From the NCBI GenBank assembly GCA_041649615.1, contig JBAZMT010000002.1, forward strand, positions 10,017 through 74,016: a DNA stretch of 64,000 nt, in the 5' to 3' direction. The position numbers and the translations under genes were made by a program. This DNA is from Parcubacteria group bacterium (lineage in GTDB: Bacteria > Patescibacteriota > Minisyncoccia > UBA6257 > Colwellbacteraceae). The notes beneath the pieces are model-generated. The model made no database searches. It was not told the DNA's origin and worked only from the letters and a program-made list of their open reading frames with translations. Within the stretch, counting starts at the first letter, position 1. Each line of letters starts with the position of its first letter. Of the stretch, positions 3,276 to 41,863 are shown in pieces.

Positions 3276-3809
3276 ATGGAAAACGATCAGGAAAAGAAAA
3301 TAGAGGAACTTATAGAGAAAGCTTCTCGCGGTAAGAAAGGACAACTTGATTTATCTTCCGATGAGGATCTTTCCGTTGCCGTAATGAATCTTCTCTCAAT
3401 TGAAGAGCATTTCTTTTTCACGGCTGAAAAAACCGAGAATTCGGATTATCTGGATTTGCTCGCAGAAGTGAGAGAAATGAGAAAGGAACTTTTGAAGAAA
3501 CTCATTAAAGACTATGAAGGAGAAGTTTGGTGCATATCAAAACATTTGCTTGCGGCTTCAATGAGATTAATGGAAGTAGGCACAAAGCAATTAGGGCAGG
3601 GGAATAAAAAAGAAGCGGAGGATATGTTCAAGAAAGCGTATGAACTTTATTCTCTTTTCTGGGGAATAAATTTGAAGATCGTGAAATTGGACGGCGTTAA
3701 AAAAATCGCCGATGACGAGTTAAATGTGAAAGATGCGGGAAAAGGAAACAAGGGATTTGGTAGATTAGGGGAGATTGTAAAGCGGTTAGTTGATTGTTGC
3801 AGAGAGTAG
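3276..3809 (+). CDS. hypothetical protein (177 aa, charged/helical)
   Basis: Clean ORF with coding-like composition; no recognisable family. Confidence 0.45.
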   Translation: MENDQEKKIEELIEKASRGKKGQLDLSSDEDLSVAVMNLLSIEEHFFFTAEKTENSDYLDLLAEVREMRKELLKKLIKDYEGEVWCISKHLLAASMRLMEVGTKQLGQGNKKEAEDMFKKAYELYSLFWGINLKIVKLDGVKKIADDELNVKDAGKGNKGFGRLGEIVKRLVDCCRE

Positions 3810-3812
3810 GAA

Positions 3813-4187
3813 CTAGAGAACAAATTTTCTGCCTTTGTATTTTTTAGCTTCAATGATAAAGGCGTTATCGTTTTTTGAACTGTGTCTTATAGAGTGACAA
3901 TTAGCACAGAGGAGAATGCATTTATCTAGTTCCTTTTTAATAACTTCCCATTTTTTATTAGCAACATTTCCAATGACAAAATCTTTTTTATTATGATTAA
4001 CGTGATGGAATTGAAATGCTGCTTGATTTCCTTGCCATCCACAATCGACACATCTTCCTCCTAGTAGTTTGATGGCGGCAAGCTTGGTTCTGTATCTTCT
4101 TATTTTTGTATTGCATGATCCACATCGGGTTCGCATTTTGTTTTGGTAATCCTTAAATTTATTACCACACAGCTTACATATGCGCAT
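3813..4187 (-). CDS. HNH endonuclease (free-standing, homing-endonuclease-like)
   Basis: '...HHVNHNKKD...N...LLCANCHSIRH' HNH motif with a Cys-rich zinc-finger N-terminus. Paralogous to the ORF at 41296-41769. Confidence 0.75.
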   Translation of the reverse strand: MRICKLCGNKFKDYQNKMRTRCGSCNTKIRRYRTKLAAIKLLGGRCVDCGWQGNQAAFQFHHVNHNKKDFVIGNVANKKWEVIKKELDKCILLCANCHSIRHSSKNDNAFIIEAKKYKGRKFVL

Positions 4188-4286
4188 GTCAATAGTATAA
4201 CATATTATGTTCTACCGTATTGGATTGGTAATCTTGAAATTAATTAATTATCTGTTAATATACGCAAGTATTCTTCAAGAATATAA

Positions 4287-4575
4287 GCCGCGATAGCTCA
4301 GTGGTAGAGCGCATCCCTCAAGTTCAACTTCGGGGCCTTCTGCAGTAATGCGGATTGAATAACTGGGTGAATTCGGAAAAGGTTCTTAGCTAGCGCTAAA
4401 AATAATTCCGAGCCAAGCTCAAAAGGACACAGGTTTTTGAGAAGGTGTAGAGACTAGCAAGTGAGCTCCAACAATAACCTTGCATAAGCGCCCGGCTCCC
4501 TTTAAAGGGAGATGATATAGTCCGGATATCCTCTGGAAGAGGATGGCGTCGGGGGTCCGATTCCCTCTCGCGGCA
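4287..4575 (+). tRNA. trnF: intron-containing tRNA, most likely tRNA-Phe (GAA); exons about 4287-4318 and 4536-4575; CCA not encoded
   Basis: Exons join into a 72-nt cloverleaf: GCCGCGA-TA-GCTCAGTGGTAGAGC-G-CATCC-CU|GAAGA-GGATG-GCGTC-GGGGG-TCCGATT-CCCTC-TCGCGGC-A. Body is Phe-like (discriminator A, GCGUC variable loop). The anticodon call rests on the inferred splice junction, which could be off by 1 nt. Confidence 0.7.
4319..4535 (+). ncRNA. group I self-splicing intron (subgroup IC3-like) inserted in the tRNA anticodon loop
   Basis: 5' exon ends in U and the intron ends in G. Internal 'CGAGCCAAGC' and 'GAAGGTGTAGAGACTAG...GATATAGTCC' match the conserved core (P7 and neighbouring elements) of the Azoarcus tRNA-Ile and cyanobacterial tRNA-Leu group I introns as I recall them. 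GGGG near the intron 5' end can pair with exon CCCU as P1 with a G.U pair. No ORF inside. Confidence 0.8.
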
Positions 4576-4581
4576 CAAAAT

Positions 4582-4621
4582 GTAACAAAGAACTCCGATT
4601 GCAATCGGAGTTCTTTGTTAC
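4582..4621. repeat. 40-nt perfect palindrome (18-bp stem, 4-nt loop) between tRNA genes
   Basis: GTAACAAAGAACTCCGAT-TGCA-ATCGGAGTTCTTTGTTAC; no T-tract follows. Confidence 0.7.
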
Positions 4622-41157: not shown

Positions 41158-41229
41158 GGCCTGGTAGTCAAGTGGTAAGACGGAGCTCTGCAAAAGCTCT
41201 ATACGCGAGTTCGATTCTCGCCCAGGCCT
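41158..41229 (+). tRNA. tRNA-Cys (GCA), discriminator U
   Basis: GGCCTGG-TA-GTCA..., anticodon arm GAGCT-CTGCAAA-AGCTC, T-loop TTCGATT, acceptor CCAGGCC-T. Confidence 0.85.
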
Positions 41230-41295
41230 CTGAAATAACGGAATAGGCTGAATATATATTTCTTATTAGTGTTCCCTATTTGATATACTTATTAG

Positions 41296-41769
41296 GTGAG
41301 AACGAGATCTTGGACGGAAGAAAATTTGTTAGCAGCTATCCAGACTTCTTATAGTTTGAGACAAGTTATTAAAAAGTTAGGACTAAAAGCTGCAGGAGGT
41401 AATTATTGTCAGATAAAAGATTTTATAAGTAATAGAGGTTTTGATATAAGCCATTTTCGTGGAAAAGGGTGGAGTGCTGGGTTACGAGGAATAGGTAGGC
41501 CTCGCATCTCGTTAGAGGATATCCTGATCAAGGATAGTAGTTTTCAAAGTTTCAAACTTAAAAAAAGATTATTTGCCTCTGGTTTAAAACCAGAATACTG
41601 TGAAGAGTGTGGCTGGAATAAAAGGACAAAAGAAGGTTATTTACCGCTTGAACTAGACCATATTAACGGGGATCATAGGGATAATAGAATAGAAAATCTC
41701 CGTGTGTTATGTCCGAATTGTCATAGTTTAAAACCTACCCACAGAGGTAGAAAATTAAAAGGAATATAA
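41296..41769 (+). CDS. HNH endonuclease (free-standing), GTG start
   Basis: 'LELDHINGDHRDNRIENLRVLCPNCH' HNH motif and 'CEECGW' zinc-finger; paralogue of 3813-4187. Confidence 0.8.
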   Translation: MRTRSWTEENLLAAIQTSYSLRQVIKKLGLKAAGGNYCQIKDFISNRGFDISHFRGKGWSAGLRGIGRPRISLEDILIKDSSFQSFKLKKRLFASGLKPEYCEECGWNKRTKEGYLPLELDHINGDHRDNRIENLRVLCPNCHSLKPTHRGRKLKGI

Positions 41770-41775
41770 AGGTAT

Positions 41776-41858
41776 GCCCGGGTGTTGGAATGGTAGACAA
41801 GCGACACTTAAAATGTCGTGGAGGCAACTCCGTGTGGGTTCGATCCCCACTCCGGGCA
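41776..41858 (+). tRNA. tRNA-Leu (UAA), type II
   Basis: GCCCGGG..., anticodon arm CGACA-CTTAAAA-TGTCG, variable arm TGGAGGCAACTCCG, T-arm GTGGG-TTCGATC-CCCAC, discriminator A. Confidence 0.85.
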
Positions 41859-41863
41859 CTAAA

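Follow-up and report, generated by a model that had tools for sequence, protein, structure and literature searches.

A predicted free-standing HNH endonuclease gene linked to tRNA-Phe in Patescibacteria and its possible part in the movement of a neighboring group I intron

Introduction

How does a group I intron that encodes no protein persist in a bacterial tRNA gene? The question is raised by a 64,000-nucleotide (nt) stretch of DNA from a Parcubacteria group bacterium (Patescibacteriota; GenBank assembly GCA_041649615.1, contig JBAZMT010000002.1, positions 10,017 to 74,016 of the forward strand; hereafter the window), in which the gene for a 124-amino-acid (aa) HNH protein, here called HNH-124, lies beside a tRNA-Phe gene interrupted by an intron. 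The initial annotation, made from the letters of the window, proposed that the two form a collaborative homing pair, in which an endonuclease encoded outside an intron mobilizes it in trans. The tRNA genes of Patescibacteria hold group I introns unusually often, and an intron at position 33/34 of tRNA-Phe has been reported earlier, as has the self-splicing in vitro of related tRNA introns from these bacteria (PMC13011429). The same survey read the Patescibacteria tRNA introns as largely immobile, with endonuclease genes rarely found inside them; its scan was limited to the inside of introns that exceed 500 bp in length, and "free-standing" is not a term used there (PMC13011429). Here, we ask whether HNH-124 belongs to the intron, to the tRNA gene, or to neither.

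Results

HNH-124 follows tRNA-Phe and not the intron

Homologs of HNH-124 of about the same length number in the hundreds, share 65-85% identity, and come from Patescibacteria only. A scan of GTDB with one genome per species returned 32 full-length orthologs (61-75% identity) from lineages of the Paceibacteria, including Nomura-, Zambryski-, Vogel-, and Yanofskybacteria, below which identity falls sharply to generic relatives. When this set was combined with three metagenome families and four loci of the tRNA-centered scan described below, 40 distinct ortholog loci were available for comparison. In every one of them tRNA-Phe(GAA) was the immediate neighbor of HNH-124; in 39 the two genes are divergent, with tRNA-Phe 75-117 nt from the ATG, and the outer flanks of the pair vary among lineages. 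A homologous intron is found at the same 33/34 site in 16 of the 40 loci, and tRNA-Phe is uninterrupted in the other 24, the intronless orthologous alleles having the anticodon loop CUGAAGA. The expectation of the initial annotation that HNH-124 would be absent wherever the intron is absent was thus not borne out, the intronless HNH loci including one that is syntenic with the window (L001) as well as a whole intron-free clade. The HNH-124 gene is tied to tRNA-Phe rather than to the intron and, since most intron loci are also without HNH-124 (see below), neither of the two depends on the other.

In a neighbor-joining tree, HNH-124 sequences cluster by taxonomy, and one clade of 17 taxa is entirely intron free. 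The ratio of nonsynonymous to synonymous substitution rates (dN/dS) was 0.02-0.09 where dS was measurable (0.8-2.6), pairs from the intron-free clade included, and dS was saturated elsewhere. HNH-124 is under strong purifying selection, also in the clade that has no intron. At one Paceibacterota locus (L025, 1-305), the intron-bearing tRNA-Phe gene is inverted with respect to the HNH gene, with a 22-nt partial copy of the tRNA 3' end between them; recombination at this locus may have left such a scar.

The HNH gene is a removable cassette that assorts independently of the intron

The most direct comparison with the window is provided by L213, a syntenic relative without HNH gene and without intron, whose flanking genes share about 80% aa identity with those of the window. 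The gene order common to both is Dus, tRNA-Trp, a glutaredoxin-like gene, a 167-aa gene, a 177-aa gene, tRNA-Phe, and tRNA-Arg onwards. In L213, a 34-nt spacer leads from the stop codon of the 177-aa gene to an intronless tRNA-Phe gene; at the position of this spacer the window has 477 nt that hold the HNH gene, the HNH promoter, and the tRNA promoter. A global nucleotide alignment of the two was unreliable in the rearranged tRNA cluster, and the left boundary and the flank identities alone were used. L001, also syntenic with the window, has the HNH gene (83% identity) and no intron; L012, with HNH gene and intron, is syntenic with L192, which has a sister intron and no HNH gene; and L037 and others, with HNH gene and without intron, are syntenic with L172, which has neither. 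All four combinations therefore occur among syntenic relatives. Cassette and intron assort independently, and the window/L213, L012/L192, and L037/L172 pairs show HNH-124 to be a discrete, removable insertion outside any intron or intein. No remnants of an HNH gene were found upstream from tRNA-Phe in the HNH-less loci, by tblastn or by the promoter motif.

The tRNA-Phe exons of the window and of L213 differ in the anticodon stem alone; this stem is CATCC/GGATG in the window, as in other intron-bearing alleles, and CAGCT or CAACT in the syntenic relatives. It is possible that this stem reflects co-conversion of exon sequence when the intron arrived; selection for pairing in the intron's P1 helix could explain it too. 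The intronless loci L229 and L230 have exons identical to those of the intron-bearing loci L012 and L192, and a search for immunity found no exon polymorphism that consistently separates HNH-bearing from HNH-less intronless alleles.

Features of the locus in the window

The coordinates of the locus are collected in Table 1. The initial annotation had placed an HNH gene ending about 100 nt from the intron-bearing tRNA; the adjacency stands, with 99 nt from the HNH ATG to the tRNA 5' end, but, the two genes being divergent, the HNH gene faces the tRNA with its start. Measured from the HNH start codon, the intron site is 131 nt away; it falls 32 nt into the tRNA, the same distance from the right-hand edge of the cassette.

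Table 1. Features of the tRNA-Phe locus, numbered from the first nucleotide of the window
Feature	Position	Strand	Remarks and basis
HNH-124, predicted free-standing HNH endonuclease gene, 124 aa	3813..4187	-	Stop codon 3813-3815, ATG 4185-4187; ORF, Pfam, PHROG
HNH cassette as an insertion/deletion, 477 nt	3810..4286		From behind the 177-aa gene's stop codon (3807-3809) to the tRNA 5' end; synteny
Putative HNH promoter/operator-like element	4194..4216	-	Fixed-register alignment
Sigma-70-like tRNA-Phe promoter, TTGAAA-16-TAATAT with TG	4234..4261	+	Inside the HNH cassette
tRNA-Phe(GAA) 5' exon, last base U33	4287..4318	+	Spliced cloverleaf
ORF-less group I intron, 217 nt, anticodon-loop site 33/34	4319..4535	+	Rfam, homologous introns, covariation
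tRNA-Phe(GAA) 3' exon, including discriminator A; CCA not encoded	4536..4575	+
18-bp perfect hairpin, terminator-like, directly 3' of tRNA-Phe	4582..4621	not assigned
ORF, open reading frame.

By profile matches and conserved residues, HNH-124 is assigned to the HNH (His-Me finger) endonuclease family. It scores 24.1 bits against Pfam HNH (PF01844; cut-off, 21.4) and matches PHROG 2255 ("HNH endonuclease") with an E value of 5e-26. An N-terminal CxxC...CxxC zinc ribbon is followed by an HNH beta-beta-alpha-metal core, and residues H61, H62, N77, H98, H102, C46, C49, C94, and C97 are invariant across 29 orthologs. The AlphaFold2 model (predicted local distance difference test score, 85) has a strand-strand-helix arrangement at residues 58-62, 90-94, and 95-103; Foldseek matches of this model in the PDB were weak, the best being HNH nucleases. 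No record of the exact HNH-124 sequence was found. A sequence search against the PDB gave nothing significant, just zinc-ribbon and McrA matches; NCBIfam returned no match; and PADLOC gave nothing meaningful, with known defense systems unmatched.

The joined exons fold as a canonical class I cloverleaf of tRNA-Phe(GAA). Default aragorn and an Rfam run at the gathering score both overlook this gene entirely, so that a standard annotation would show the genome of the window as apparently lacking tRNA-Phe. With introns allowed, aragorn calls a tRNA-Leu(CAA) at 4287-4576 with the intron placed 3 nt further along; this call was ruled out by the intronless homologous alleles and by the rule that a group I intron follows U and ends in G.

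That the intron has no ORF, as initially annotated, was confirmed for the intron's own strand. With Rfam Intron_gpI (RF00028) it scores 48.5 bits (E value, 2e-11), slightly below the gathering score of 50, while homologous tRNA-Phe introns in L005 and L009 reach 79 and 66 bits. In its P1 helix the exon sequence CCCU is paired with GGGG, and the terminal omega G lies at 4535. We compared 23 tRNA-Phe introns at this site from loci with and without HNH-124, the 22 homologs being 52-80% identical to the intron in the window. All 23 are preceded by U and have G as last base, and in the intron tree those from HNH-bearing and HNH-less loci interleave. Of the 36 pairs in their consensus fold, 22 show compensatory changes, and pairing is 97% canonical; the tRNA-Phe intron is therefore a ribozyme under selection. 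With U at position -1, the omega G, and a core backed by covariation, the insert in the window is assigned to the group I introns and is predicted to self-splice.

Introns in tRNA-Phe co-occur with adjacent predicted nuclease genes of two families

The comparisons above start from the HNH gene; a sample centered on the tRNA gene was obtained by scanning metagenome contigs for the 5' half (GCCGCGRTAGCTCAGTGGTAGAGCG) of this tRNA type, which gave 120 loci, 67 of them tRNA-Phe. An intron was present in 21 of the tRNA-Phe genes, and the neighborhood was assessable in 18 of these: HNH-124 was adjacent in 3, a second and unrelated protein of 231 aa in 12, and neither in 3. Among the 46 intronless tRNA-Phe genes (43 assessable), HNH-124 was adjacent in 1, the 231-aa family in none, and neither in 42. 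An adjacent nuclease gene of either family thus accompanied 15 of 18 intron-bearing and 1 of 43 intronless genes (Fisher test, p = 1.7e-10). Taken alone, the 231-aa family was strongly associated with the intron (12/18 versus 0/43, p = 1e-8), and HNH-124 was adjacent to no more than 4 of the 61 tRNA-Phe loci that could be assessed. When tRNA type was matched, the intron was found in 10 of 12 loci with HNH-124 versus 7 of 33 without it (p = 2.7e-4). The initial suggestion that an adjacent nuclease gene accounts for the persistence of the intron is upheld in part: the association of intron and nuclease gene is there, but most intron loci carry the probable LAGLIDADG-fold gene described next and not HNH-124. 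In three loci (L192, L193, and L255), an intron-bearing tRNA-Phe has neither nuclease gene adjacent, which might reflect co-conversion that left the endonuclease gene behind or a later loss of that gene; L193 has, 396 nt upstream, a homolog of a 157-aa HNH protein treated at the end of this paper.

The 231-aa protein was first met in L183 and belongs to related loci only, not to the window. It has 500 homologs, and its gene adjoins an intron-bearing tRNA-Phe in 15 of 15 loci, including three further lineages. An N-terminal helix-turn-helix is followed by the motif LLxIGxALYWAEGYK with invariant E106 and G107. Sequence libraries do not recognize the protein and Foldseek was uninformative; it is probably a free-standing endonuclease of the LAGLIDADG type, although the LAGLIDADG fold can be noncatalytic, as in WhiA. 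The two families are unrelated.

The wider HNH family comprises several arrangements of nuclease gene, tRNA gene, and intron

A profile built from the orthologs matched 33,061 cluster representatives at E values of ≤1e-3 and 8,263 at ≤1e-10. In a sample of 48 GTDB loci with relatives of 35-54% identity, drawn from many phyla and including a few archaeal bins, a tRNA gene lay within 400 nt in 41 and no tRNA was nearby in 7. The HNH ORF lay inside a tRNA intron of 510-690 nt in 16 of the 48 (Asn-GUU, Gln-CUG, Thr-UGU, Met-CAU, and Pro-CGG), beside a tRNA with an ORF-less intron in 8, and beside an uninterrupted tRNA in 17, notably Arg-UCU and Arg-CCU and often in the same divergent layout as HNH-124. 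Of 20 loci tested with Rfam, 17 reached the gathering score for a group I intron, with introns in other tRNAs scoring 52-100 bits. The intron-encoded proteins of L072, L082, and L087 share their HNH core with HNH-124, residues 30-98 being 47-51% identical. The wider family therefore shows every stage of the collaborative homing model: a free-standing gene by an uninterrupted target, a free-standing gene by an ORF-less intron, and an intron-encoded gene. In one Peregrinibacteria locus (L088, 262-998), the HNH ORF runs antisense within a tRNA-Met(CAU) group I intron.

Viral contigs show a similar picture: of 80 HNH relatives, 42 have a tRNA no more than 400 nt away. The homolog in the cultured Cronobacter phage CR3, gp262, is flanked by tRNA-Asn and tRNA-Glu. 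Outside the orthogroup, the five best relatives (49-60% identity) come from IMG/VR contigs with dense tRNA arrays (L092-L096); all five abut tRNA-Phe, one of them having tRNA-Phe on both sides, and lower-scoring relatives adjoin other isotypes. The viral tRNA-Phe genes are very unlike the Paceibacteria gene and have little in common with it beyond the anticodon stem-loop YTGAAGA. The wider family thus appears to be composed of lineages each specific for a tRNA isotype.

A conserved element overlaps the predicted HNH promoter

On the HNH strand of the window, the element GGTAGAAC-N6-TGTTATACT includes an extended -10 box (TGnTATACT) and ends 6 nt before the ATG. In 37 of 37 loci, the HNH strand has GGTAGAGCA-N6-TGCTATACT in fixed register, ending 5-8 nt before the ATG, with the alignment consensus AGTATAgCA-N6-GcTCTACc. 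Because an extended -10 box so near the ATG leaves no room for a Shine-Dalgarno sequence, the HNH mRNA is probably leaderless or nearly so. The two half-sites form an imperfect inverted repeat, GTAnAGCA-N6-TGCTnTAC, that overlaps the -10 box. Operators are laid out in this way, and autorepression, which is known for the endonuclease I-TevI, is a reasonable idea for HNH-124, possibly acting through this repeat. The left half of the element is identical to the D-arm motif GGTAGAGC of tRNA-Phe; a check for covariation between GGTAGAGC in the spacer and the D arm of tRNA-Phe gave nothing convincing. The spacers of the orthologs hold tRNA promoter-like boxes comparable to those of the window (TTGAAA/TTGCAA...TAnnAT). 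A similar palindrome, CTGGTAGAA...TTCTACCAG, precedes the HNH homolog of the viral contig L093.

Discussion

Our results suggest a role for HNH-124 as a free-standing homing endonuclease cassette that is specialized for the tRNA-Phe locus and can carry the intron along by trans or collaborative homing, a reading that we favor with moderate confidence. We infer endonuclease activity, a target site, gene conversion, and intron mobilization as its elements. In relatives that lack the cassette, HNH-124 would nick or cut the tRNA-Phe gene or the DNA next to it, and recombinational repair would then copy the cassette into the cut locus. The donor's tRNA-Phe intron, about 130 nt from the HNH start, would be co-converted with the cassette because its insertion site lies so near. 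Such a process would be trans homing as in the T4 MobE/nrdB intron system, or collaborative homing should the cut fall at the intron site itself; the intron would be a separate element at the same locus that benefits from the proximity of the cassette. Such tight linkage to the tRNA gene, kept while genomes are rearranged, is required by a homing endonuclease but not by a host factor that acts in trans.

The closest known parallel is phage T4, in which MobE trans-homes the nrdB intron (PMC2790892). As with HNH-124, a free-standing HNH gene lies beside a gene with a group I intron that is immobile by itself, and the intron is moved by co-conversion within recombination distance, a cut at the insertion site being unneeded. 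The geometry and distribution of HNH-124 are compatible with trans homing of this type. The case differs in that the MobE target is a phage protein-coding gene, whereas here a bacterial chromosomal tRNA gene is concerned, the HNH gene has long persisted by intronless alleles, and the endonuclease activity is a prediction.

Several of our findings weigh against this reading. The 24 intronless loci of the 40 keep the loop CUGAAGA, and cleavage at 33/34 would hit the carrier's own gene, except in the case of an enzyme that only nicks, of tight repression, or of a different target. The HNH sequences group by taxonomy in the tree, with saturation at synonymous sites, a pattern closer to long vertical inheritance than to frequent horizontal spread, and we saw no truncated, frameshifted, or degenerate copy among the 40 loci, all of which are intact. 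In the tRNA-centered sample, the association of HNH-124 alone with the intron is weak (3/18 versus 1/43, p = 0.07), and because the loci are not phylogenetically independent, the p values reported here overstate the evidence, though the effect is still large. In addition, cleavage by HNH-124 in or beside tRNA-Phe is a prediction, and DNA exchange among these bacteria is assumed.

The age, intactness, and low dN/dS of HNH-124 in the intron-free clade make domestication the main rival. Here, the protein would benefit its host in cis at tRNA-Phe, either as a regulator of the divergent promoters or as a guardian against foreign or phage tRNA-Phe DNA, and the intron would be a bystander. This would account well for the low dN/dS (0.02-0.09) at saturated dS, which extends to the intron-free Nomurabacteria/Zambryskibacteria clade, for the agreement of the gene tree with taxonomy, for the 40 intact copies of 40, and for the palindrome-like element over the HNH promoter in all 37 loci. 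We nevertheless consider it unlikely: HNH-124 is dispensable, being cleanly missing in syntenic relatives and present at just 4 of 61 assessable metagenome tRNA-Phe loci; it matches none of the known defense systems; and its relatives are encoded within introns or lie in phage tRNA clusters, the classic contexts of selfish genes. We think it improbable that HNH-124 is no longer, or not solely, selfish, and serves as a domesticated cis factor that guards against invading introns or foreign tRNA-Phe DNA or regulates the divergent promoters. A second, much larger HNH family at tRNA-Leu(UAA) across the candidate phyla radiation (CPR) may be a similar case.

Strict collaborative homing is a further explanation, in which HNH-124 would cut intronless tRNA-Phe at 33/34, the intron would protect against the cut, and the two would spread as an obligate pair. 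The model is known from F-CphI and the psbA intron of cyanophages and from DNA polymerase introns of T3/T7-like phages (Zeng et al. 2009; Bonocora & Shub 2009; both cited through PMC2790892 and PMC3984707), and has been reviewed (PMC3984707). The likeness lies in a nuclease gene close to the intron site and in the co-occurrence of the intron with any adjacent nuclease gene (15/18 versus 1/43). The ORF-less intron adjacent to the HNH gene, the association in matched tRNAs (10/12 versus 7/33), the anticodon stem-loop YTGAAGA as the sole feature common to the tRNA-Phe genes by the closest HNH relatives, and the intronless L229 and L230, whose exons, matching those of intron-bearing L012 and L192, make them potential targets, would all agree with it. 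It is weakened by the 24 HNH loci that are uninterrupted with the same loop, L001 and the clade under purifying selection among them, so that cleavage of the insertion site with immunity by the intron is unsupported for HNH-124; nor is there a consistent exon difference between HNH-bearing and HNH-less intronless alleles. The obligate pattern belongs instead to the putative LAGLIDADG family, found with the intron in 15 of 15 loci, a strictness that HNH-124 lacks and that the strict model predicts. We therefore regard this model as doubtful for HNH-124; it fits the LAGLIDADG family better, whereas MobE-like trans homing fits HNH-124 better.

It is very improbable that HNH-124 is a maturase that helps the ORF-less intron to splice, and we reject this on distribution: adjacency speaks for it and nothing else, while the HNH gene is conserved at 24 intronless loci, the intron occurs without HNH-124 in 15 of 18 assessable intron-bearing loci, the intron family has a full conserved ribozyme core with covariation, and related Patescibacteria tRNA introns self-splice in vitro (PMC13011429). 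Chance adjacency of an ordinary HNH gene to a tRNA cluster, conceivable in a region with six tRNA genes within 2 kb, can be dismissed given that 40 of 40 orthologs lie beside tRNA-Phe specifically with differing outer flanks and that 41 of 48 distant genomic relatives lie within 400 nt of a tRNA.

Other known systems share single traits with a homing cassette at tRNA-Phe. Free-standing endonuclease genes occur in phage tRNA clusters, as in T4 SegB and T5 F-TflI/II/IV, and SegB, which recognizes a motif in the T arm of tRNA genes, drives the inheritance of the tRNA region of T4 (PMC2330249). The HNH-124 family likewise has free-standing genes among tRNA genes, CR3 gp262 lying in a phage tRNA cluster, but SegB is a GIY-YIG protein of phage genomes that meet in co-infection, whereas HNH-124 sits on a cellular chromosome, at a single isotype, in divergent layout. 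HNH genes are also known inside the 35/36 introns of Patescibacteria tRNA-Asn(GUU) (PMC13011429); these have the same HNH core in the same phylum and a group I intron in the anticodon loop, but their ORFs lie within the intron, whereas HNH-124 lies outside it and is divergent. In the literature that we searched, we found no free-standing endonuclease genes systematically parked beside a bacterial chromosomal tRNA gene, no strong link of such genes with ORF-less tRNA introns, and no two unrelated endonuclease families that alternate at one tRNA locus.

The presence of an adjacent gene of one or the other of two unrelated families at 15 of 18 assessable intron-bearing tRNA-Phe loci suggests that the endonuclease genes simply lie outside the intron and that Patescibacteria tRNA introns are still mobile. 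If the enzymes are active, trans or collaborative homing, documented so far mainly in phage protein-coding genes, would keep tRNA introns in these reduced genomes. The wider HNH family provides a natural series of stages in the assembly of a mobile intron, and its isotype-specific lineages, common to bacteria and phages, could yield new sequence-specific nickases.

A second HNH gene in the window

The window holds another HNH gene at a tRNA, that of the 157-aa protein mentioned above (41296-41769, + strand), which lies between tRNA-Cys (41158-41230) and tRNA-Leu(TAA) (41776-41859), its stop codon 6 nt before the latter. The protein matches Pfam HNH_3 (30.3 bits) and HNH (28.7 bits) and PHROG 10822 (E value, 7e-41), and has 3471 homologs of 61-76% identity in many CPR lineages. 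In Azam-, Magasanik-, and Gracilibacteria, the homolog abuts tRNA-Leu(UAA) within 0-7 nt. Five independent Patescibacteria loci have 8-90 nt from tRNA-Cys to tRNA-Leu(UAA) and no HNH gene, and the 157-aa HNH gene is therefore also a cassette that is present at some loci and absent from others.

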